A stretch of 51,809 bases of DNA from a virus. Where the stretch lies: the IMG/VR virus record IMGVR_UViG_3300044445_000085, positions 1 through 51,809 of that record. The stretch is one strand, 5' to 3'. Position numbers and translations under genes: made by a program. Shown piece by piece: positions 10,477 to 51,809 of this stretch. Below the pieces are notes generated by a model, which did no database searches, was not told the DNA's origin, and saw only the letters and a list, made by a program, of their open reading frames with translations. Every line of letters starts with the position of its first letter. The stretch's first letter is position 1.

Positions 10477-13178
10477 GCGGTGGCTCCGGCGTAGGGGCTG
10501 GTGATGCCGTTGCGGAGGTCGCGGACGACGCGCTGGCCGACGACGGCGCCGACCTCCTGGGCGGTCTGGGTGTCCTGGACGGTGTAGTACTGCCGGGCGT
10601 CGATCGTCATGCCGCTCCCTCCACCGGTGAGCCCGGCGTCGTCCATGAGCTGGTTCCGGCGGTTCCGGCGTCGCTGGGACAGGGGCACGACGACCTCGGG
10701 CCCGTCCTCGCCGATGACGGCCAGGGTGGGGCGGTTGACGATCGCGCCGTCGGCGAGCTGGGGGATCCGCGGGATGTCTGGGGGGTTGATCGTGATCCCG
10801 GCGATGGTGAACTCGAGCAGGTCGTTGACCCGGTCGATCACGTTGGAGTTGATGAACCGGATGACGGAGTTGACGATGTTCTTGCCGACGTTGCCGACGA
10901 ACCCGGCCGCGTTGGCGATGCCGTTCACCAGGCCTTGCATGAGGTCTCGGCCGGCGCCGAGCAGCAGCGAGCCCAGGGAGCCTAGGGCCGAGAGGATCCG
11001 GCCCGGCAGGCTGGACACGAACCCGACCACGGTGTTGAAGCCGTTGACCACCGCGTTGTAGGCCCCGGACACCGCGCCGGTGATGAACCCGACGACGGCG
11101 TTCCACGCGGCGGCGGTGGCGTTCTTGATCGTCTCCCAGTTGGCGACGATCACCGCGATGACGGCGACGACGGCGGCGATCACCAGCGCGATCGGGCCCA
11201 TGGCGATCAGCCACGCGGCCGCCACCTTGGCCGCGCCGAGGAGGGACTGGGCGCCCATGACGATCCACCCGCCGACGACGCCGGCGACGGTGGCGGCCAT
11301 GCTGGCCAGCATCACGGCGCCCTGGACGGCGAACCCGGCGGCCATGGCGACCAGCGACGCGACGGTGCGGATCTGGGCGCCGACCCACGCCGCGGCGGTG
11401 GCGGCGGCGGAGGCGACGGCGCCGGCGGCCATGGCGACGTACTGGGCGCCGATCACCGCGGCGGAGATCACGGCCTGGGCGGCGAGGGCGATCCACCGGG
11501 CGATCATCTGCACGACGGCGAGGGAGTGCGCGGCCGCGCCGGCGATCGCCTGGGCCTTCTGCACGGTCCACGCGGCGACGGCCTGCACCTTGGTGGTGAC
11601 GTAGGCCGCGGCCAGCGCGATCAGGTGCGGCAGGAAGATCGCGGCGATGACGCCGACGACGACGCCGATCGCCGTGGCGTTGTCGCGGATCCATGTGCCG
11701 GCGTCGATCAGGGCGGGCACCAGGGTGCCGGCGATGAACCCGCCGACCAGCTGGAGGGTCGGGCCGAACTGTGTGGCCAGGGTGCTGGCCAGGTTGGAGA
11801 CGAACGGCAACACCCGGTTGCCGATGAGGTCGACGAACGTCTGGGAGAGCTGCCGCTTGAAGGACTCGATGTTGCTGGCGGCGTTGTCGTTCAGGGTGGT
11901 GCCCAGCGCGGCCGCGGCGCCGTCGATCTGGCCGAGGGAGCGCGTGGCCTCGGAGGGGTCGAGGGACAGGATCGCGTCGCCGAGGTCTTCGTACTGCGTG
12001 CCGATCAGCGCGGTGGCGGCCGCCGATCGGGCGGCCGGGTCCTCGGTGTTCCGGAGGGCGTCGAACACCTTGTCCATGGCCGCGGCCGCGGCTGGTCCGC
12101 CGGCCTGGAAGTCGGCGAAGATCTGGGCGGAGTCGAGGCCGAGGTTGTTGAGCGCGCTGGCGGCGTCCTCGCCTCCCTCGCGCATGATGATGCCCATCTC
12201 GCGCACGGCGTCGGCGGCGAAGTCGGCGTTCGGGATGCCCGCGGCGAGGGCCTGGTTGATGAGGCCGATCGCGGAGCCGCCGTCGAGGCCGACCTCCTGG
12301 AAGGTCGTGCCGTACTCGCCGATGACGTCGAGGAAGTCGCCGCCGCGGTCGGCGCCCTGCTGGAACCCGCGGGTGATGAGGTCGAGGGCCTCGCCGGCGT
12401 CCTTGGCCATGCCGGTCTGGATCAGCCGGCCGACGGCCTGGGAGGTCTCGCCGACGTCCTTGTCGAAGGCGGTGGAGAGGTCGAGCACGGAGGCGGTGAC
12501 CGACTGGAGCTGCTCGTTCGTGGCGTCCTCGAACACGGCGCCGGACTGGATGACGGTCCGGAGGGCGTCGGACACCTCGCCGAGGTTCTCGCCGTAGTTG
12601 CTCACGTAGAGCTGGCCGGCGATCTTCCCCAGGTCGGCCGCGTAGGCCCCGGAGGCGCCGAGCTGGGCGTTGAGCTTGTCGAGGGCGACCTCGGTGTCTA
12701 TGGAGCCGGCGATCGAGGTGCCGATGATCGCGCCGACAGCTGTGGCGGCGCCGGCGATCGCCAGCTTGGCCTTGGTCCCGAAGCCCTCGCCGGCGGCGTC
12801 GCCGGCCTTCTCCCCGGCCTTCTTGGCGTTGTCGACGATCGGCTCGAGGGCCTGGTCGGTGCGGTTGGCTCCGTCTCGGAGGGCGTCGGTGATGCCGGCG
12901 GCCGCGTCCTGGGCGCCGGCGACGACGCGGCCGCCGGCGTCGGTCATGGCGTCGCCGAGCTGGCCGAGGGAGCGGGCGGCGTCCTGGCCCTGCTCCTCGA
13001 AGGCCTCGCCGATCAGGCGGGCCGCGGTGCTGCTCTCGTCGCCGACGTCGTCGAAGGTGTCCGCGGCCGCGTCGGCGATGGTGGCCAGCGCCGCCCCGAA
13101 CCGGCGCTCGAGTTCGGGCCCGACCTTCTCGGCGTTGGCCTCGACCTCGACGTAGGCCTTGCCGACGGACGACGCCAC
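10473..13178 (-). CDS. Tape measure protein
   Basis: GTG at 13176-13178 follows GAGGAGCACC. At 901 aa it is the largest tail ORF and lies between the chaperone pair and Dit. It is Ala/Gly-rich with a long hydrophobic central segment (...AIGVVVGVIAAIFLPHLIALAAAYV...). Confidence 0.9.
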   Translation of the reverse strand: MASSVGKAYVEVEANAEKVGPELERRFGAALATIADAAADTFDDVGDESSTAARLIGEAFEEQGQDAARSLGQLGDAMTDAGGRVVAGAQDAAAGITDALRDGANRTDQALEPIVDNAKKAGEKAGDAAGEGFGTKAKLAIAGAATAVGAIIGTSIAGSIDTEVALDKLNAQLGASGAYAADLGKIAGQLYVSNYGENLGEVSDALRTVIQSGAVFEDATNEQLQSVTASVLDLSTAFDKDVGETSQAVGRLIQTGMAKDAGEALDLITRGFQQGADRGGDFLDVIGEYGTTFQEVGLDGGSAIGLINQALAAGIPNADFAADAVREMGIIMREGGEDAASALNNLGLDSAQIFADFQAGGPAAAAAMDKVFDALRNTEDPAARSAAATALIGTQYEDLGDAILSLDPSEATRSLGQIDGAAAALGTTLNDNAASNIESFKRQLSQTFVDLIGNRVLPFVSNLASTLATQFGPTLQLVGGFIAGTLVPALIDAGTWIRDNATAIGVVVGVIAAIFLPHLIALAAAYVTTKVQAVAAWTVQKAQAIAGAAAHSLAVVQMIARWIALAAQAVISAAVIGAQYVAMAAGAVASAAATAAAWVGAQIRTVASLVAMAAGFAVQGAVMLASMAATVAGVVGGWIVMGAQSLLGAAKVAAAWLIAMGPIALVIAAVVAVIAVIVANWETIKNATAAAWNAVVGFITGAVSGAYNAVVNGFNTVVGFVSSLPGRILSALGSLGSLLLGAGRDLMQGLVNGIANAAGFVGNVGKNIVNSVIRFINSNVIDRVNDLLEFTIAGITINPPDIPRIPQLADGAIVNRPTLAVIGEDGPEVVVPLSQRRRNRRNQLMDDAGLTGGGSGMTIDARQYYTVQDTQTAQEVGAVVGQRVVRDLRNGITSPYAGATA

Positions 13179-13201
13179 GGTGCTCCTCGGGAGAGGGGGT
13201 G

Positions 13202-13243: not shown

Positions 13244-13855
13244 TCAGCCGCCGCCGAACGCTCCGAGCTGGCCGGCGACGGCGAGGAAGCTCTCGGCCTC
13301 GTGCTCGAGGGCGTCGGGGTCCTCGGCGTCGTAGGCGGTCAGCGGGGGCGCCTCGAGCCAGCGGAGGAACTCCTCCCGGTCCTCCTTGGTGGCGTTCTCG
13401 ATGCGCCAGGCGTAGACGGCGGCGAGGAACCGGTCGAGGGGGAGGGCGAGGAGGTCGACGCCGCGGCGTGCGGTGCCGCCGTCGAGCATGGCCCAGTTGG
13501 CGGCGGCGACGGCGACCAGCCGGTCGGCTTCCCACCAGCGCCACCCGCCGGAGGCCTGGGAGAGCACGGCGAGGCCGACGTCGATGCACCGCTGGTGGGT
13601 CAGGGTGTCCTCGTCGTCGTCGATCGCGTCGAGCAGGGCGTCCTCGTCGTCGTCCGGGAGCAGCCCGGGGAACACGGCGAGGGGGTCGTCGTCGAGGTGG
13701 GCGACGACCCACGCTCGAGCTGGCAGGGCCGGGATCGTGTACTCCTCCCCGTCGAGGAGAACGGACACGACCCCGGCCCGCTCGAGCTGGTCGCGCCAGT
13801 CGGTGAGACGGCGCGGGCTGGTCACCGCCGACCGCGGCGGCCCTCGGGCTTCCAC
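13244..13855 (-). CDS. Tail assembly chaperone, -1-frame extension (T-like part of a G-T product)
   Basis: It is open in the -1 frame relative to 13822..14187, overlaps the end of that gene and has no RBS of its own. The motifs LLDGEEYTIPALPARAWV...RWWEADRLV...FLRWLEAPP fit actinophage chaperone T regions as I recall them. I found no canonical slippery heptamer. Confidence 0.5.
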   Translation of the reverse strand: MEARGPPRSAVTSPRRLTDWRDQLERAGVVSVLLDGEEYTIPALPARAWVVAHLDDDPLAVFPGLLPDDDEDALLDAIDDDEDTLTHQRCIDVGLAVLSQASGGWRWWEADRLVAVAAANWAMLDGGTARRGVDLLALPLDRFLAAVYAWRIENATKEDREEFLRWLEAPPLTAYDAEDPDALEHEAESFLAVAGQLGAFGGG

Positions 13856-14187
13856 TGCTCGGCGATCGCCTCGAGGATCTCGAGGGCGTGGTCGACGTCG
13901 AAGTCGTCGTTCTCGTCCTCGAGGCGGGCGATCAGCGCGGAGCGGCCGGGCTCGAGGAGGGCGTCGGCGAGGAAGTCGATCGCCAGCTGGACCTTGAGCA
14001 GCGGGTTGGTGCGGCGTTGGGTGGCCACGCCTAGGCGCGCCATGAGCGCGTCCTTGGGCTTGCGCACCAGGTACTCCCGGCCGTCGACCTCGATCGCGAT
14101 CGTGCGTTCGATCGCCGGGGCGTTCGGGTTCTCCGGCGCGCGCTCCTTGGGGGTGGTGGTGAAGCTCAGGGCGGCCGAGTCAGCCAT
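13822..14187 (-). CDS. Tail assembly chaperone (G-like)
   Basis: The ATG follows AAGGAGACCCCC. The 121-aa product has an acidic C-terminus (LEDENDDFDVDHALEILEAIAEQW). It lies immediately upstream of the tape measure region, with an overlapping -1-frame ORF. Confidence 0.55.
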   Translation of the reverse strand: MADSAALSFTTTPKERAPENPNAPAIERTIAIEVDGREYLVRKPKDALMARLGVATQRRTNPLLKVQLAIDFLADALLEPGRSALIARLEDENDDFDVDHALEILEAIAEQWKPEGRRGRR

Positions 14188-15089: not shown

Positions 15090-15641
15090 TCAGGGGACGA
15101 ACACGCTGCACAGGGTTGCACCGCCGACGACGTCGCCCTCGGGGCCGATCGGTCCGTAGGACCCCAGGGATACGCCGGCGTCGTCGTTGTCGGCCGGGAA
15201 CCGGTCGAGGATGGTGTGCCGCACCAGGGCGGCGTCCACGGAGGCCTGGTCAGCCGCGGCGCGCTGCTCCTCGACGGTGGGCGGGTAGTAGTTCCCGCCG
15301 TCCTCGGTGCCCACCGGGGCGCACCGGGCGACGCCGACCTCAAGGGTGACGGAGTACGACATCTCGGAGCGGGACGCGCGCGCCAGGGGGGCGGGGAAGG
15401 TGTCCCAGTCCGTCGGGGACACGTCGACCAGCCGGACCCAGGCCATGCCCTCGCAGCCGTCGCCGCAGTCGAGGCCGTGGTCGAGGACTGGGAGCGCGCC
15501 GGGGAGCACCTCGAAGGTGCACGGGGGCACCAGCGTCTCGTCGTGCTCGCCTTGCTCGGCGTAGACGACCTCGAGCGCGGCCAGCACGCCGGTGAGGACG
15601 GGCCAGGCGACGGGGTCGGTGCACCGCGGTGGGGTCGTCAC
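15090..15641 (-). CDS. Head-tail connector component candidate
   Basis: The GTG start overlaps the upstream stop (GTGA). The product is 183 aa (…CEGMAWVRLVDVSP…LEVGVARCAP…). The call rests on position within the connector block only. Confidence 0.4.
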   Translation of the reverse strand: MTTPPRCTDPVAWPVLTGVLAALEVVYAEQGEHDETLVPPCTFEVLPGALPVLDHGLDCGDGCEGMAWVRLVDVSPTDWDTFPAPLARASRSEMSYSVTLEVGVARCAPVGTEDGGNYYPPTVEEQRAAADQASVDAALVRHTILDRFPADNDDAGVSLGSYGPIGPEGDVVGGATLCSVFVP

Positions 15642-16366
15642 GTGAGGAACCGGTGTCGGTGCAGGTCGGGGGTGCTCACGGTGGCGGCCTCGGGGTAGCC
15701 GGCGGGGTTCACGGTGGCCAGCCAGCGGTCGACGGCGGCGGATCCGGTGCGGCCCTGCTCGGTCAGGGTCGCCGGGTCGGGCGGCTCGATGGTCAGCCCA
15801 GGGCGGGCGATGGACCGCGCTCGAGCTGGCACCGCGCACGGCTGGCCCTTGGAGGCGCGGAGCAGCTCGCCGGCGTAGCGGCCGGCGGCGATGTTGCCGG
15901 CCGCTGGAGGCGGGGTGCCGATCACAGCGTCGACCACCCACACCGGGTCGGGCGCGTAGACGTCCTGCCCGACAGGCCACCCGGAGCCGTCGGTGCGGAC
16001 CAGCGCGCCGTCGGGGTCGAGGACGTAGGCGGAGGTGGGGAGCACCTCCCCGGCGATCTCGACGCGGGTGACGGCGGCGATCTGGGGGATGCGGACCAGC
16101 GTGCTGCCCTCGCCGCACACGCTGGCCCAGGGCCGGGGGGTGGCGTAGCGGTTGCGCTGGGCGTAGGCGTTCGGCCGCCGCGCCGCCAGGAACGGGGCGA
16201 CGCGGCGGGCGGCCAGGTGGAACCGGCGACCGGACAGAGCCCAGAGGGTGTGCACCGACCAGACCAGCGCGGCCGCGCGCTGGTCTGCGGTGGCCTCGGC
16301 CCAGCCGGCCCCCGACACCGAGGTGTCGGGGGACCAGCCGAGGAGGTCCGGCGCCGGGCTGGTCAC
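15638..16366 (-). CDS. Head-to-tail adaptor candidate
   Basis: The GTG start overlaps the upstream stop (GTGA). In the 242-aa product, ALVWSVHTLWALSGRRF...VTRVEIAGEVLPTSAYVLD...LVRTDGSGWP resembles gp6-like adaptor patterns as I recall them. Confidence 0.4.
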   Translation of the reverse strand: MTSPAPDLLGWSPDTSVSGAGWAEATADQRAAALVWSVHTLWALSGRRFHLAARRVAPFLAARRPNAYAQRNRYATPRPWASVCGEGSTLVRIPQIAAVTRVEIAGEVLPTSAYVLDPDGALVRTDGSGWPVGQDVYAPDPVWVVDAVIGTPPPAAGNIAAGRYAGELLRASKGQPCAVPARARSIARPGLTIEPPDPATLTEQGRTGSAAVDRWLATVNPAGYPEAATVSTPDLHRHRFLT

Positions 16367-17064
16367 GCGGCCAGCGCGGCCAGGCCGTCGAACACGGCGG
16401 GCGGAGCGATGCGGGTCTGGAAGAGCTTGAAGTGGTTCCGGGAGCCGACGGCCTCGAGCAGCTTGCCCGCGGGGTAGACGCCGTTGACGGCGGCGCCGGA
16501 CTCCTGCACGTTGTACGGCCCCTTGCCCCAGAGCGAGCCCTCGCGGGAGGTGGAGACGACGCCGAAGCTGGCGGCGCCGTTCTCGATGGTGAAGTCCTGG
16601 ATCTTGCCGCCGCGGAGGTAGGGCAGCAGCAGGTAGCCGTAGGACCGGCCACCGCCGGCGCACGCCCCGGCGCCGGCCAGGTCGGTCCACACCTCGAGGC
16701 CGTACCCGCCGACGACGGGCACGCCGCCGTCCGCGGAGAGGCCGACCGCGGCGGCCTGGAAGTCCAGCACGGTGGGCAGGTTGGTGATCATCGCGGCGTA
16801 GTCGGGCTGCACGCCGGTGAACGCGATCGTGGCCTCCACGCCGACCAGCTGGGCGTCGGGCAGCTCGTTGACCTCGTACTCCCCGCCCGCGTTCGTCACA
16901 CGGATGGTCTCGCCGTCCTCGTACTGGAGGGCCATGCCGACGGACACGAAGCCCTTGGAGACGCCGGTGGTGGCCGGGCCGACGACGGGGGCGCCGCACT
17001 CGTCGGTGCGCGTCAGGCGCATCCGGCGGCCGCGGATCGGGGCGAACATCTTGGAGGTGGGCAC
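16363..17064 (-). CDS. Major tail (tube) protein candidate
   Basis: The GTG start follows AAGGAGACCACCCC. The 233-aa product has RMRLTRTDECGAPV...KGFVSVGMALQYEDGE, a tail-tube-like pattern. It is preceded by the late-type motif. Unusually, it lies upstream of the connector genes. Confidence 0.5.
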   Translation of the reverse strand: MPTSKMFAPIRGRRMRLTRTDECGAPVVGPATTGVSKGFVSVGMALQYEDGETIRVTNAGGEYEVNELPDAQLVGVEATIAFTGVQPDYAAMITNLPTVLDFQAAAVGLSADGGVPVVGGYGLEVWTDLAGAGACAGGGRSYGYLLLPYLRGGKIQDFTIENGAASFGVVSTSREGSLWGKGPYNVQESGAAVNGVYPAGKLLEAVGSRNHFKLFQTRIAPPAVFDGLAALAA

Positions 17065-32177: not shown

Positions 32178-32356
32178 CGGAGCCACCCGGCCAGGGCGAG
32201 GACCGCGGCGCCGGAGCCGGCGAGCGCGACGCCGAGCACCAGGGCCAGCACGGCGATCAGCTCGCCGGCGGAGTGCCGGGCCGACCCCAGCTTCCCCAGC
32301 GCGCCGAGGCCGGCGGCCACCGCGCCGACCACGACGGCGATCTCGGCCGGGCTCAC
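32174..32356 (-). CDS. Small membrane protein
   Basis: The GTG start overlaps the methyltransferase stop (GTGA). The 60-aa product has two hydrophobic Ala/Gly/Val/Leu-rich helices. Confidence 0.5.
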   Translation of the reverse strand: MSPAEIAVVVGAVAAGLGALGKLGSARHSAGELIAVLALVLGVALAGSGAAVLALAGWLR

Positions 32357-33600
32357 AGCAGCACGCCCTGGATCGGCTTGGCCAGCCGGCCGACGATCAG
32401 CGGCAGGTACGGGGCGTGCCGCTCGACCAGCGTGCACCGGAAGCCCTCGACCAGGCAGGCCTCCCCCGTCGTCCCGGATCCGCCGAACGGGTCGAGCACC
32501 ATGCCGCCGGGCGGGGTGACCAGCCGCACCAGCCACCGCATGAGGTCCAGCGGCTTGACCGTGGGGTGGGTCGTCTCGCCGTCCCGCGGGCGCTCCGACG
32601 TCGGGGCCTTGGCCTCCCACCGGAAGGTCGGGAAGTACCGGGAAGCGCCGCCGGGCTCGAGGTCGACGCGGTCGCCGGTGGTGCCGGTCTGCTCCCCGCC
32701 GTAGCCGATGCCCTCCCGGTGGGCGGGGTGCGCGCCGCCGCGGCGGACGCCGGTCTGCAGGTCGAGGTCGGCGGCGGTGCCGTCGTCGAGCACGACGTTG
32801 GTAGGCCACCGGCCGAGCTGGTGCGCGCGGGCAGCGACCCGGGGGATCGGGTCGACGGACAGGCCCAGCGACGTGCCGGGCGCGCGGGCGGCCAGCTTCT
32901 CCGGGGTCATGCCGGCGTGCTTGGCGTCGATCGCCGCGGCGTCGGCGGCCGAGGTGGCCGTGCGGGCCGCGTCGATGTGCAGCGCGCCGGTGCCGTGGGC
33001 CAGCACGGTGGCGGCGACGGTGCCGGCCAGCGGCTTCCGGCCCACCACCATGGGCTCGAACGCGGGCTTCAGCGCCGTGCCCCAGCCGTCCCAGTCGAGG
33101 GAGCCAGTGGCCTGGGCGACGTCGAGGGACTTGGGGAAGCCCTGCCCGTAGAGCCAGGCGATGGAGTCGCGGATCTCGAACCCGGCGTCCTCGACGCCGG
33201 AGGCGAGGCGGTGCCAGGTGCGGGAGCCGCCGAACGACACCAGGTGCCCGCCGGGCTTGAGCAGCCGGAGGCACTCACGGGCCCAGGCCTCGCACCAGTC
33301 CTGGAAGCGGGCGTTCGCCGGCCGGGAGAGGTCGTACCGGCCGGCTTCCATGGCTCCGGCGCGGGCCCGGCTGGTGCGGTGGTCCCAGGCGGCCTCGCGC
33401 TGGTGCACGCCGGGGGCGCCGTTGGACCGGAGCGGGCCGTAGCGGCCGGGCTGGTCCCAGGCGTGGCCCATGAACCCGATGCCGTAGGGCGGGTCGGTGA
33501 CCACGGCGTCGATCGAAGCGTCGGGCAGCAGCGGCAGCACGTCGAGGAGATCCCCGTGCCAGAGGGTCGCGGTCCCGTCCGACCAGTGCGGGCCGGTCAC
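32353..33600 (-). CDS. DNA methyltransferase, N6-adenine/N4-cytosine type (beta class)
   Basis: The 415-aa product has motif IV (VVTDPPYG) near the N-terminus and the AdoMet motif I (VLDPFGGSGTTGEA) near the C-terminus. Confidence 0.85.
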   Translation of the reverse strand: MTGPHWSDGTATLWHGDLLDVLPLLPDASIDAVVTDPPYGIGFMGHAWDQPGRYGPLRSNGAPGVHQREAAWDHRTSRARAGAMEAGRYDLSRPANARFQDWCEAWARECLRLLKPGGHLVSFGGSRTWHRLASGVEDAGFEIRDSIAWLYGQGFPKSLDVAQATGSLDWDGWGTALKPAFEPMVVGRKPLAGTVAATVLAHGTGALHIDAARTATSAADAAAIDAKHAGMTPEKLAARAPGTSLGLSVDPIPRVAARAHQLGRWPTNVVLDDGTAADLDLQTGVRRGGAHPAHREGIGYGGEQTGTTGDRVDLEPGGASRYFPTFRWEAKAPTSERPRDGETTHPTVKPLDLMRWLVRLVTPPGGMVLDPFGGSGTTGEACLVEGFRCTLVERHAPYLPLIVGRLAKPIQGVLL

Positions 33601-34016
33601 GACGTCGGCCCGTAGGGGTTGGCGGTCAGCTCAAGGTGGTCGGTGGAGTTCCCGACCTGCCGCTCCCGGGCAAACGCGGTGGCGTCGGCGTCACCGGCCT
33701 CCCAGCCCTCCTGCCAGGCCACGACGCGCGCCGCGGCCAGCTGCTCGCGGAGCCGGTTCCGCTCCTCGAGGAGGGCGTCGTAGGCGGCGTCGTGCCGACG
33801 GTCGGACTCCCGCTGGCCCTCCCGGTAGCCGGCCCGCTCGCCCTCGCAGATCCCGCGCCGGAGGTACTCGAGCAGGGCGTCGGCGATGCGCTCGACCTGG
33901 TCGGCGGAGGCGCACCCGCCCCAGTCCTCGTCGCGGCCCGTGAGCGCGGTCCACGCGGCCCGGTACGGCGAGGGCGGGGCGGGGACGACGTCGCGGAACA
34001 CGCCGAGGTCAGCCAC
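33597..34016 (-). CDS. Hypothetical protein
   Basis: The start is GTG and the product is 139 aa. It has an 8-nt overlap with the upstream gene and a helical, charged composition. Confidence 0.55.
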   Translation of the reverse strand: MADLGVFRDVVPAPPSPYRAAWTALTGRDEDWGGCASADQVERIADALLEYLRRGICEGERAGYREGQRESDRRHDAAYDALLEERNRLREQLAAARVVAWQEGWEAGDADATAFARERQVGNSTDHLELTANPYGPTS

Positions 34017-34332
34017 GGGACACCGCCGGGCGGCCGACCGCGGTGCTCCGGTGGTCCTCGACCAGAATCCACCCGGCCATGACGTCGGGGTCGCCGAGCT
34101 GGTGCTCGAACACGATGCCGAGGGCGCCGATGCCGGCGTGCCGGACCAGCAGCCCGCCGGCGCGGCGGGCGTTCGCCCGGTCGAGCACGGTCACGATCTC
34201 CTGCCCGTCGGCGGCCAGCATGGCGGCCTGGGCCTTGATCTGGTCGGGGGTGTGGGTGGCGGCGAGCTCGGCGCGGGCCTGGGCCCACGTCTTGCTGGCC
34301 AGCACCTCGAAGGGGTCGGTCAGGTCGGGCAT
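34009..34332 (-). CDS. Hypothetical protein
   Basis: The ATG follows GTGGAGGAGACACC. The product is 107 aa. Confidence 0.55.
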   Translation of the reverse strand: MPDLTDPFEVLASKTWAQARAELAATHTPDQIKAQAAMLAADGQEIVTVLDRANARRAGGLLVRHAGIGALGIVFEHQLGDPDVMAGWILVEDHRSTAVGRPAVSRG

Positions 34333-35849
34333 GGTGTCTCCTCCACGGTGACGATCGGGCAGTGCGGCAGCAGGCGGCGGAGCCCTTCCGCGGCCTGCTG
34401 GGGTACGACGCCGTTCCCGAGGAGGCGGAGGGCCTCACGGTCACGGACGGCGAGCAGCTCGAGGGGCTCGAGCAGGTCGGGCGGGAACAGGTCGAGCTGG
34501 TCCAGCTCGAGGGGGATGCCGGTGACGTGGCCCTCGGGGAGGCCCATCATCCACTCGACGGCGGCCGGGTTCAGCCCGTCGGATCCGGATCGTCGTCGGG
34601 CCAGAGGAGGAGGGGCGGGTCGTCCGAGGACGGCGGCCCACCGCGCGACGGCCGCGGCGTACTTGCCCCAGGCGTCTGATCCATCGGGCCCTTGACCAGC
34701 TGCTCGAGGGAGGGGCGCACCGCGGCGCCAGGTGAGGGCGACCGGTTTGTGCCGGCGGGGCTGGCCGAGGGCGTCGGCAGCAGCGGCACCAGGGCGTCGG
34801 TCAGCGTCGTCCCGGTGTGCGACGTCCCGGTGGTGGTGGTGTGCCGGCGTGCGCTCTCGGCGTCCGTGGCCACCGGGGTGGGCAGCAGCCGCCCGACCGC
34901 GTCCGGCAGGGAGTCGTCGCCCGTCGTCCGCGGCCGCCCGCTCCGGAGCCGTCCCGGGTCGGTGTTCATCCGGCCCTTGTGGTCCCGCGCGGTGGGCGTC
35001 GGCAGGATTGCCCCGGCCAGCGTCGGGTTCCCCCGCGGGTAGGCCGGCGTCGACCGGTCCCCGTCCGCGCGCACCGGCGTCGGCAGCATGTGCGCCACGG
35101 TCGTCAAGTCGTCCCCTCCCCCGCCGCCGCCGTGGTCCCTGCTCGCCCTCGCGTAATCCGGACCCGACTGGCCCAGCTTGGCCTCCGGAGTTGGCAGCAG
35201 GTCGAGCCGCAGGTCCCGCTTCCCCCGGGAGTCCTGGGGCGGTCCGCCCGTGTGGATCGAGCGGGTCGGCGTGGCCAGCAGACGGCCAGGCGAGGATGAA
35301 CACGCGGAACCGTCCGTGGGGGGCTCCGACGTCGGCAGCGCGTAGGCCGACCCACGCCGCGTCGTACCCGAGGTCGGCCAGGTCCCCGAGAACAGCGCCG
35401 AGGGCCCGGAGCTGGACGGGACCCGCCACGTCTGCGTCGTCGGATCCCAGGTTGCGGTGGGCTCGGGCACTGAGCAGACCCCTCACGTTCTCGATGACGA
35501 CCAGCGACGGTCGGAGGTTGGCGACCGCGGCGGCCACCATGGCCCAGAGGCCGGAGCGGGTGCCGGCGGCCAGGCCGGCTTGCTTCCCGGCCAGCGACAA
35601 GTCCTGGCAGGGGAAGCCCGCGGTGATGATGTCGACGGGCTCGACGGTGGACCAGTCGATCGCCGAGACGTCGCCCAGGTTGGGGACGTCGGGCCAGTGG
35701 TGGTCGAGCACCCGGAGGGCGGCCGCGTCGATCTCGGCGTGCCACGCCGGGGTGCCGCCGAGCACCTCGGCGACGGCCAGGTCGAGGGCGCCCGTGCCGG
35801 TGAACATGCTCCCCACGCGGGGAGCGCGGGGCAGGGTGCCCAGCGTCAC
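34320..35849 (-). CDS. DNA (cytosine-5) methyltransferase whose coding signal changes frame twice
   Basis: The GTG start overlaps the upstream stop (GTGA). Frame A carries FTGTGALD (motif I), GFPCQDLS (IV), ENV (VI), HGRFRVFILA (VIII) and, at the 3' end, EWMMGLP and GNGVVPQQ (X). The middle ~590 nt carry coding signal only in the frame of ORF 34571..35470 (LLPTP repeats). Confidence 0.8.
   Translation of the reverse strand: MTLGTLPRAPRVGSMFTGTGALDLAVAEVLGGTPAWHAEIDAAALRVLDHHWPDVPNLGDVSAIDWSTVEPVDIITAGFPCQDLSLAGKQAGLAAGTRSGLWAMVAAAVANLRPSLVVIENVRGLLSARAHRNLGSDDADVAGPVQLRALGAVLGDLADLGYDAAWVGLRAADVGAPHGRFRVFILAWPSAGHADPLDPHGRTAPGLPGEAGPAARPAANSGGQAGPVGSGLREGEQGPRRRRGRGRLDDRGAHAADAGARGRGPVDAGLPAGEPDAGRGNPADAHRAGPQGPDEHRPGTAPERAAADDGRRLPAGRGRAAAAHPGGHGRRERTPAHHHHRDVAHRDDADRRPGAAAADALGQPRRHKPVALTWRRGAPLPRAAGQGPDGSDAWGKYAAAVARWAAVLGRPAPPPLARRRSGSDGLNPAAVEWMMGLPEGHVTGIPLELDQLDLFPPDLLEPLELLAVRDREALRLLGNGVVPQQAAEGLRRLLPHCPIVTVEETPCPT
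34685..34691 (-). other. G_GGC_CCG heptamer at the point where the methyltransferase coding signal returns to the outer frame
   Basis: The minus strand reads gtc aaG GGC CCG atg in the middle frame. A -1 shift here yields ...VKGP-DGSDAWGKYAAAV..., which continues the C-terminal methyltransferase motifs. The site fits X_XXY_YYZ formally. Confidence 0.4.
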
Positions 35850-51354: not shown

Positions 51355-51809
51355 CGGCGGCGAACGGGGACCGGAAGGCGGTGACGGTGCCGCCGGGCTT
51401 CTCGTCGACGCCGTCGTCGCCGGCGGGGCCCTCGGGGTAGCCCTCCTCCCACGGCGGCTGCTCGGCGTCGTCGTCGGTGGTGGGGCTCGAGCCCTGGTCG
51501 CCGGCGACGTCGCCGGCGTCGGGCAGGTCGGGCCGCTCGTCGATCGTCACCCGGGTGTCGTCCTGGGTGAGGTCGAAGGGCAGGGCCACCTTGCCGGTGC
51601 GCTCCTCGTGGGCGGCCCGCAGCAGCCCGGAGGCGACGGCGATCGCCTCGGCGCCGAGGAGGGGCTCGATCGCCTGGAGCCGGACCAGGGGCACCTCGGA
51701 GTCGTCGTCGGTGTTCCGGGTCAGCTGCTTGCAGTCGACGATCGCGACGACGACGTGCGCGGCCTTGGGGTCGTCGATGAACTGGGACACGATGCGCACC
51801 AGCCCGTTC
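51344..51809 (-). CDS. Hypothetical protein, 3' body of the junction-spanning gene (5' end continues at 128..174 through the repeat)
   Basis: The frame is open to the window edge. It reads ...VRIVSQFIDDPKAAHVVVAIVDCKQLTRNTDDDSEVPLVRLQAIEPLLG..., has an acidic C-terminus and ends at a TAG stop (51344-51346). Confidence 0.7.
   Translation of the reverse strand, partial: NGLVRIVSQFIDDPKAAHVVVAIVDCKQLTRNTDDDSEVPLVRLQAIEPLLGAEAIAVASGLLRAAHEERTGKVALPFDLTQDDTRVTIDERPDLPDAGDVAGDQGSSPTTDDDAEQPPWEEGYPEGPAGDDGVDEKPGGTVTAFRSPFAAGGQ
51683..51809. repeat. Terminal direct repeat, copy 2 (identical to 1..127)
   Basis: Base-for-base identical to positions 1-127. Confidence 0.95.

Follow-up and report, generated by a model that had tools for sequence, protein, structure and literature searches.

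M.EcoHK31I and M.AquI are natural cytosine-5 DNA methyltransferases made of two chains; the former, from E. coli HK31, was reportedly described by Lee, Kam and Shaw in 1995, and the latter is said to have been described by Karreman and de Waard in 1990. In M.EcoHK31I, beta has its whole coding sequence in a different frame inside the alpha gene; alpha has motifs I-VIII, the target-recognition domain and motif X, beta has only motif IX, and both chains are needed (PMC2836561, PMC3404938). The large chain of M.AquI carries motifs I-VIII along with a portion of the variable region, and the small chain carries the rest of that region together with motifs IX-X (PMC3404938). Genes 6 and 7 of phage Corndog have their strongest ribosome-binding site inside gene 7 and show coding potential in their overlap, and the mechanism was left open between two products, a frameshift, a ribosome hop and an intron (Cresawn et al. 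2015, PMC4351075). Here we analyze a related methyltransferase locus on the minus strand, at 34320 to 35849, of the viral record IMGVR_UViG_3300044445_000085, a stretch of 51,809 nucleotides that we refer to as the window. We suggest that the locus probably consists of two overlapping genes, alpha in frame A and beta in frame B, which would encode one two-chain cytosine-5 DNA methyltransferase instead of one recoded gene.

As in M.EcoHK31I, the smaller open reading frame (ORF) of the window lies wholly inside the larger one in a different frame (34571-35470 in 34320-35849, +1), and the nested ORF has its own start, which in the window is a predicted one (GAGGGG, an 8-base spacer and GTG 35470). 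Unlike M.EcoHK31I, the alpha of the window carries motifs I-VIII, IX and X, and its beta carries variable repeats and is much longer (299 residues), as far as the two systems can be compared by description. The M.AquI split within the variable region resembles that of 117 two-ORF relatives of the window, including Corndog, which have essentially the same split. In the window, however, motifs IX-X are back in the alpha frame, which does not stop until past motif X, and beta is fully nested. Corndog gp7/gp6 (Cluster O; PHROG 1008) is homologous to the window locus: after motif VI it has the same internal start with its ribosome-binding site, and it shares the dual-coded N-terminal module (N-module), but the Corndog alpha stops right after motif VIII and its beta runs through motifs IX-X, whereas the window alpha never stops and recaptures motifs IX-X. 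Single-chain enzymes (Mycobacterium phages Akhila and Madiba, Gordonia phage Stultus and a Mycobacteroides abscessus prophage) share the order of N-terminal domain (N-domain), LLPTP repeats and C-terminal domain (C-domain). Unlike the window, they are, as annotated, in one frame throughout, although some still hide a +1 beta ORF. We found no prior description of the fully nested form in the literature searched. The locus most likely represents a new split among the rare natural two-chain cytosine-5 methyltransferases, and one whose layout is widespread in actinobacterial phages and prophages.

Homology divided between two reading frames

When four intact homologues were aligned to the locus by ungapped tblastn, the high-scoring segment pairs (HSPs) fell in frame A at 35822-35268, in frame B at 35224-34697, and again in frame A at 34691-34356. 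More than 100 methyltransferases encoded by single ORFs are colinear with the mosaic protein read in this A-B-A order, which they cover to 95-99% with 41-45% identity. G+C content at third codon positions (GC3) follows the same division: over 35260-34700, frame B has a GC3 of 0.73-1.00, mostly at least 0.87, whereas frame A has 0.40-0.73 over most of that stretch, with brief rises to about 0.9. The first-pass annotation of this DNA had proposed that the coding signal changes frame within one long ORF, and had named homologues colinear with frame A across the middle as the outcome that would speak against it; the middle matches frame B, and both the HSP frames and GC3 bear out the switch of homologous parts between two frames. 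The methyltransferase motifs also lie in frame A where they had been placed, and the LLPTP-like series of frame B resolves into six units. The coding signal of frame B extends further than had been drawn. It does not begin near 35285 but at GTG 35470, overlapping motifs VI-VIII, and it does not end at the return to frame A but continues to its own stop at 34573-34571. The features of the locus are as follows.

34320..35849, minus strand: alpha gene, frame A, from the ORF list; motifs I-VIII, a filler of ~200 codons, a pre-IX helix, and motifs IX and X
35849, minus strand: GTG, likely start of alpha, overlapping the TGA of the upstream gene as GTGA
35816 (GTG) and 35807 (ATG), minus strand: alternative starts of alpha
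35804-35781, minus strand: motif I, FTGTGALD, frame A
35618-35595, minus strand: motif IV, GFPCQDLS, frame A
35492-35484, minus strand: motif VI, ENV, frame A
35479..35484, minus strand: Shine-Dalgarno sequence GAGGGG of beta, with an 8-base spacer before GTG 35470
34571..35470, minus strand: beta gene of 299 codons in frame B, offset by +1 from alpha, from the ORF list; wholly within alpha; N-terminal peptide sequence PEPTATWDPTTQTWR
35470-35468, minus strand: GTG, predicted start of beta
35285..35470, minus strand: dual-coding stretch; frame B reads as the beta N-module (MPEPTATWDPTTQTW...FSGTWPTSGTTRRGSAYALPTSEPPTDGS) and frame A as the alpha segment from motif VI to motif VIII
35318-35289, minus strand: motif VIII, HGRFRVFILA, frame A
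34683..35282, minus strand: alpha filler, as the coding region of beta reads in frame A; Arg/Gly/Pro/Ala-rich, stop-free, predicted disordered
34769..35281, minus strand: six-unit LLPTP-type repeat region of beta, at the variable (target-recognition) position of the family
35281-35267, minus strand: LLATP unit, frame B
35200-35186, minus strand: LLPTP unit, frame B
35089-35075, minus strand: MLPTP unit, frame B
35008-34994, minus strand: ILPTP unit, frame B
34888-34874, minus strand: LLPTP unit, frame B
34783-34769, minus strand: LLPTP unit, frame B
34685..34691, minus strand: G_GGC_CCG heptamer at the return from frame B to frame A, bracketed by 34697-34691
34323..34682, minus strand: C-terminal domain of alpha, from the ungapped frame A HSP of P0006, invariant residues and the predicted local distance difference test (pLDDT)
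34670-34638, minus strand: WGKYAAAVARW helix in the alpha C-terminal domain
34625-34611, minus strand: GRPAP in the alpha C-terminal domain
34574-34536, minus strand: motif IX, LNPAAVEWMMGLP, frame A
34573-34571, minus strand: TGA, stop of beta, embedded in the alpha Leu-Asn codons where motif IX begins
34418-34395, minus strand: motif X, GNGVVPQQ, frame A
34322-34320, minus strand: TGA, stop of alpha

The frame A product belongs to Pfam PF00145 by its N-terminal catalytic domain, which has the cytosine-5 motifs I (FxGxG), IV (PCQ), VI (ENV) and VIII (R.R), but the Pfam match covers residues 12-187 only (E = 5e-30). Among the PHROGs annotated as 'DNA methyltransferase', alpha matches phrog_363 (E = 9e-60) and phrog_116 (E = 3e-58). 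Motifs IX and X lie in the frame of alpha, which is open throughout, with the homologous variable region in the other frame, and residues in motifs IX and X are invariant across 39 homologues. In an AlphaFold2 model of alpha, residues 1-180 and 377-482 have a pLDDT mostly above 90, and residues 191-365, in the filler, have a pLDDT of 32-45 and no secondary structure. The top Foldseek matches of the model are M.HhaI (2z6q, E = 1e-10) and M.HaeIII (1dct). Alpha is thus predicted to fold as a methyltransferase core whose parts are joined through disordered filler. Its start is likely to be GTG 35849, judging from the N-termini of homologues and from the sequence itself.

The 299 codons of beta comprise the N-module, the six LLPTP-type units and an acidic tail. 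In single-ORF homologues, the counterparts with which they align are in-frame LLPTP units located between motifs VIII and IX, and by this position in single-chain relatives the units of beta may serve in target recognition. The 'DNA methyltransferase' profile phrog_1008 is divided between the two frames of the window and is not matched as a whole by either protein: profile positions 70-213 align with beta residues 2-143 (E = 1e-31) and positions 194-320 with alpha residues 333-482. Database proteins matching beta at E <= 1e-3 number 859 and are mostly stand-alone 'hypothetical proteins' without a Pfam match.

Frame A shows a dip in GC3 at 34645-34600, and we considered an additional pair of shifts there. 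We rejected it because P0006 aligns ungapped in frame A over 34691-34512. Within 34600-34645 (minus strand), alpha reads as the conserved LGRPAPPPLARRRSGSDG stretch, in which nine of some twenty codons have A or T as their third base (GGA, CGA, CCT), and frame B reads as the acidic tail SSDDPPLLLWPDDDPDPTG. Tails similar to that of beta (SSDD.P..LW.D, or GQLTIE.A) recur in some relatives.

Predicted internal start and dual-coded module of beta

The Shine-Dalgarno sequence GAGGGG spans three codons: it takes its first base from the end of the ENV Val codon, the next three from the rare Arg codon AGG, and GG from the start of the Gly codon GGT. Most relatives have GAG AAC GTG AGR GGN CTG CTC AGT G directly after motif VI, which puts a Shine-Dalgarno sequence 8 bases upstream of a +1-frame GTG at ENV+22, while a second subgroup of loci uses AAT for the ENV Asn, creating an ATG at ENV+4. 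Every ENV+22 start is preceded by a Shine-Dalgarno-like sequence. A Shine-Dalgarno sequence and a start at ENV+22 or ENV+4, with the +1 frame open, were found in 92/96 two-ORF loci and in 29/39 A-B-A loci. The codons that create the start are rare ones, and they are about tenfold enriched at their positions: in high-GC loci the Arg after ENV is AGR in 17 of 35 cases, as against 18 of 315 among upstream Arg codons, and the Ser of ENVRGLL-S is AGT in 20 of 37, as against 11 of 229 among upstream Ser codons. We take these comparisons to show that beta has a putative ribosome-binding site and start codon of its own, conserved and under selection.

The first ~60 residues of beta form a conserved module, [V/M]PEP.A.W(N/D)P...W......(F/Y)S.TWP(T/A)SG..R.G.AY.LPT...PT, which the window shares with Corndog gp6, at the N-terminus of that protein, and with loci of every class, in their +1 frame. 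AlphaFold2 predicts four strands within beta residues 1-50, with a pLDDT of 86-93. Over the stretch where this module is dual-coded, alpha shows an excess of synonymous-codon identity. Among 71 sequences less than 85% identical, it is 1.7-1.94 times the expectation at alpha residues ~117-157, which correspond to the overlap, and 1.0-1.15 times at residues 1-110. Moreover, the W-x6-W motif of the N-module is retained in the window and in L014, where the alpha sequence is unconserved. The module is also found well beyond this locus: a phmmer search of 1.84 billion representative proteins returned 528 clusters, and in ~146 of the best 150 the match begins within residues 1-18 of an independently called protein of 80-420 residues, while tblastn found the N-module in 156 actinophage records, and PHROG 1008 includes it. 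Because synonymous identity in alpha rises exactly over the overlap, the comparisons show the predicted N-module to be under selection and not a by-product of the conservation of alpha.

Several further proteins are of note. The metagenomic P0365 (381 aa) has motifs I-VI and CPWC in frame and then runs straight into the beta N-module, a change of frame inside the dual-coded overlap that could be a natural variant or a sequencing error. The metagenomic P0263 (342 aa) is a beta-type protein whose ORF first has ~150 residues that by eye resemble a LAGLIDADG homing endonuclease, and an endonuclease may have been inserted at the alpha/beta boundary. The more distant P0310 and P0363 have an N-module-like YDPDTSSWRTS...FSETWPRSGxMRNG.AY.LP deep within the protein, together with a motif IX-like LNP.FVEWLMG, so that the N-module exists also outside the overlapping context.

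The first-pass annotation had reasoned that a functional enzyme needs a +1 shift followed by a -1 shift. The apparent start and Shine-Dalgarno sequence of frame B make such double recoding unnecessary. Double programmed frameshifting, with a +1 shift after motif VIII near 35285-35224 and a -1 shift at 34691-34685, would yield a single-chain product and would explain why the A-B-A mosaic is colinear with intact single-chain homologues. The heptamer G_GGC_CCG does coincide with the return point, as had been noticed: it occupies 34691-34685, within the 7-base bracket left between the frame B and frame A HSPs, and in-frame X_XXY_YYZ heptamers occur at only 0.19% of codon positions in the genes of the window. 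At the first switch, a rare TCT codon follows CCG. However, no X_XXY_YYZ heptamer is conserved at the return point among 40 A-B-A loci. GGC_CCG is a weak re-pairing sequence for -1 frameshift sites, and the 90 bases 3' of the heptamer are no more stably folded than shuffled sequences (minimum free energy -38.4 as against a shuffle mean of -39.7 kcal/mol, z = +0.34, pseudoknot-free folding). Nor is there a conserved shift-prone codon pair after motif VIII, where the sequences vary freely among 38 A-B-A loci. The sole conserved feature there is the dual-coded FxxA(W)PAADA (alpha) / SSSxLLPTP (beta). A shift placed so as to include the first LLPTP unit would cut motif VIII, whose end this unit overlaps. 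Double frameshifting would also leave the conserved internal Shine-Dalgarno sequence and start, the selection on the N-module and the open frame A unexplained. Any frameshift fusion would skip the N-module, which is nevertheless under apparent selection, and double recoding is therefore unsupported; we regard it as very unlikely.

A single -1 shift is another proposal, in which alpha would be the N-domain only and some ribosomes starting at GTG 35470 would slip at 34691-34685 to give a long beta resembling Corndog gp6. Beta naturally has motifs IX-X in its own frame in 117 related loci, PHROG 1008 spans both parts, and the heptamer stands at the junction. The heptamer is, however, unconserved and lacks a stimulatory RNA structure in the folding described above, and a single -1 shift needs no open frame A, which is nonetheless open in all A-B-A loci, unlike in the two-ORF loci. 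We consider this proposal quite unlikely.

Recurrence of the layout and the open frame A

We surveyed 206 fetched loci having both an N-domain and a C-domain. Relative to the N-domain, the C-domain of 125 loci is in frame +1, that of 72 in frame 0 and that of 9 in frame +2. Those in which we could locate the ENV motif, 204 of the 206, were classified further: 117 are two-ORF loci like Corndog, with an alpha that ends after motif VIII and a beta that has the repeats and motifs IX-X, 42 have the A-B-A pattern of the window, and in 21 the repeats are in the frame of the N-domain. At 70% N-domain identity, the A-B-A loci form 18 groups. They include the chromosomes of Lentzea sp. HUAS TT2 and Streptomyces sp. 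S186, isolates of Amycolatopsis, Prauserella, Actinokineospora, Nonomuraea, Saccharothrix, Streptosporangium and Kibdelosporangium, and the cultured Streptomyces phage Raleigh, in which gp38 is annotated as one 519-residue 'DNA methylase'. At the same spot, Cluster O mycobacteriophages (e.g. Corndog) and several phages of Arthrobacter have a pair of overlapping genes annotated as 'DNA methylase'. The expectation that such loci would be annotated as a single intact ORF held for Raleigh gp38, Gordonia phage Phinally gp5 and Mycobacterium phage Ritam007 gp68. By nearest-neighbor analysis of N-domains, the classes are interleaved. Phinally gp5, Ritam007 gp68 and the metagenomic locus L138 have LLPTP units in the alpha frame and yet also a +1 ORF with a start, the N-module and one to two units. 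The linker 'PADAARDGRDERRPESAWLVGRPDAAVGG' of many annotated proteins is the off-frame reading of 'ILPTPRATDGTKGGPNQRGSSGDLMLPSAV', and the linker 'PADAARDGRDERRPE...GRPDAAVGG' of single-ORF proteins is an LLPTP unit read off-frame.

Two single-base assembly errors in the contig would be conceivable in that it is metagenomic, from the Joint Genome Institute (JGI). But independent assemblies, among them finished chromosomes of isolates and SEA-PHAGES genomes, show the same pattern, elsewhere in the window the genes tile cleanly, and assembly errors cannot produce an internal start and a dual-coded module, which leaves them extremely improbable.

Another possibility is a decaying or inactive gene, in which two compensating one-base indels garbled the middle of a once single-frame gene and the frames are open by chance in DNA of 75% G+C. 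In the window alone, an open frame A has a chance probability of P = 0.34, the return point falls in a G/C run, which is a typical site of indels, and the NCBI annotation of one relative calls beta only, where alpha may have been treated as a frameshifted pseudogene. This relative, L218 (Streptomyces inhibens, GCA_042741115.1, 2380-4010), is annotated with beta only, as a 'hypothetical protein' with a downstream start, and has no alpha protein listed, despite an alpha frame that is open from motif I to motif X. Decay is difficult to reconcile, however, with a frame B that has a GC3 of 0.87-1.00 and intact repeats, with an alpha C-domain that keeps the invariant motif IX/X residues, and with a layout maintained across 18 diverged groups. 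Locus L219, which is 47% identical to the window in both alpha and beta, has the same architecture, with its return point at a GGTGGGGGG run. Random indels would put the C-domain in frames 0 and +2 alike, yet among high-GC loci it is in frame 0 and never in frame +2. Decay thus appears unlikely to us. The recurrence of the layout, in finished chromosomes and in a cultured phage, means that neither assembly error nor recent decay is credible as a general explanation, and the first-pass suggestions of a recent inactivation or of two assembly errors are contradicted both by this recurrence and by a frame A that is free of stops in every A-B-A locus.

The loci with a C-domain in frame +2 are of a different kind: all nine (L007, L009, L013, L037, L065, L147, L156, L158 and L176) are of low G+C content (0.45-0.54) and have a gap of 450-880 bases, with stops in all frames, between the domains, which suggests an inserted element.

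The filler of 38 non-identical A-B-A loci contains no frame A stops, as against ~60 expected from shuffles of the frame B codons, in a class whose definition itself demanded an open frame A; L046 is the sole locus with PTP in the +1 frame and its C-domain in frame 0 that does have frame A stops. Taking one A-B-A locus per 70% group and multiplying the per-locus chance values by hand gave P ~1e-14, with kinship in the family statistics handled through the 70% grouping alone. In nine control two-ORF loci (G+C >=0.58), there are 42 frame A stops as against 33.7 expected, and only one locus has none. In the A-B-A loci, motifs IX-X are translatable only in frame A, and no stops intervene; the comparison accordingly shows a frame A that selection appears to keep open and that would be read through into motifs IX-X. 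We also considered a third polypeptide with its own start for motifs IX-X and rejected it for the window, because there is no frame A start codon near the junction in its sequence.

We read the heptamer where homology returns to frame A as most likely a scar, left by an ancestral one-base indel in the G/C run, and not as a working slip site. It is plausible that a one-base indel at GGGCCC gave rise to the return point by moving motifs IX-X from the frame of beta into the open frame of alpha, an event that would have been a re-wiring and not an inactivation.

Several observations weigh against two overlapping genes. The heptamer lies exactly at the return point, for which the chance is ~1% in a 4-codon bracket at the rate of 0.19%. 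A disordered insert of ~200 residues, as in alpha, is unusual for an enzyme. Beta beyond the N-module is predicted poorly (AlphaFold2 pLDDT 50-60), and neither Foldseek nor a profile search of PDB sequences found a match for beta in the PDB. No synonymous constraint was detected where the beta tail overlaps the alpha C-domain, either in all A-B-A loci or in the subset with long tails. The open frame A is not significant in the window by itself, and the argument from it rests on the family, in which locus classes were assigned by simple motif counts. Finally, the products of Corndog genes 6 and 7 were undetected by mass spectrometry (PMC4351075).

Nevertheless, we favor two overlapping genes, for which we rely on what the comparisons show of two-frame homology, a recurrent layout, apparent selection on the beta start and N-module, and an open frame A. 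Ribosomes would read alpha in frame A between about 35849 and 34320, giving motifs I-VIII, the disordered filler and motifs IX-X. They would read beta in the +1 frame, beginning just past motif VI at GTG 35470, which has a ribosome-binding site of its own, and ending with the TGA at 34571. Beta would consist of a small folded N-module, dual-coded with alpha motifs VI-VIII, followed by the six LLPTP repeat units. By analogy with M.AquI and M.EcoHK31I, alpha and beta would assemble into an active enzyme; we infer that both chains are made in the phage and associate, and that beta supplies target recognition. Of what the first-pass annotation had proposed, then, the two-frame observation stands, while none of the three explanations offered for it, including the twice-recoded gene with its want of a conserved heptamer, a conserved shift-prone site or an RNA structure, is the best.

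More tentatively, the family may use a frame-tolerant two-chain design in which both frames of the variable region are translated, an idea that we hold to be possible but somewhat short of probable. Alpha would read through, beta would start internally at the overprinted, dual-coded module, and one-base indels between LLPTP units would shift recognition modules, and even motifs IX-X, between the chains without destroying the enzyme. Such a design would explain why single-ORF, two-ORF and fully nested forms coexist and are interleaved.

Genome context and meaning for the family

The window has a G+C content of 74.6%, and its first 127 bases (1-127) are an exact copy of its last (51683-51809). 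With this end-to-end repeat, the genome is probably complete, at ~51.7 kb, and circular or terminally redundant. A GC3 scan places all strong coding segments on the minus strand, and genes tile cleanly over the rest of the window. The contig is of metagenomic (JGI) origin, and a gene product on record for it, P0121 (a JGI gene call of 172 residues), is a piece of frame B with 100% identity; look-ups of the contig's own gene calls returned no entry. No close DNA relatives that would allow a base-by-base comparison of the switch points were found in phage records, IMG/VR, GTDB genomes or JGI metagenomes; the closest N-domain found is 72% identical.

Elsewhere in the window, two adjoining coding segments at 13265-14181 (minus strand), just upstream of a 902-codon gene at 10488-13193 that is likely to encode the tape measure protein, resemble a tail assembly chaperone pair. 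The first segment is 14181-13834 and the second, at 13843-13265, lies in its -1 frame; the pair would be the canonical programmed frameshift of tailed phages. An N6/N4-type DNA methyltransferase is encoded at 32353-33612 (minus strand), two genes downstream of the cytosine-5 enzyme (PF01555, E = 6e-28; phrog_67). At 15629-16366 (minus strand), the crude GC3 scan shows no strong coding segment, though a 1.7-kb ORF (15090-16787) spans the region.

For the question posed in 2015 about Corndog genes 6 and 7, our analysis gives a sequence-based answer, in that the evidence favors two products with a truly dual-coded overlap. Many entries of the family appear to be mis-described as a single ORF with a junk linker, as an apparent pseudogene or as a 'hypothetical protein', examples being Raleigh gp38, Phinally gp5 and gene calls by JGI and the Prokaryotic Genome Annotation Pipeline (PGAP). 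The locus also provides a long and statistically supported candidate case of overlapping genes in double-stranded DNA phages, with at least 186 bases dual-coded under constraint in both frames and 900 bases nested. Natural two-chain cytosine methyltransferases serve as scaffolds for targeted methylation, and this family would be a large new source of them.

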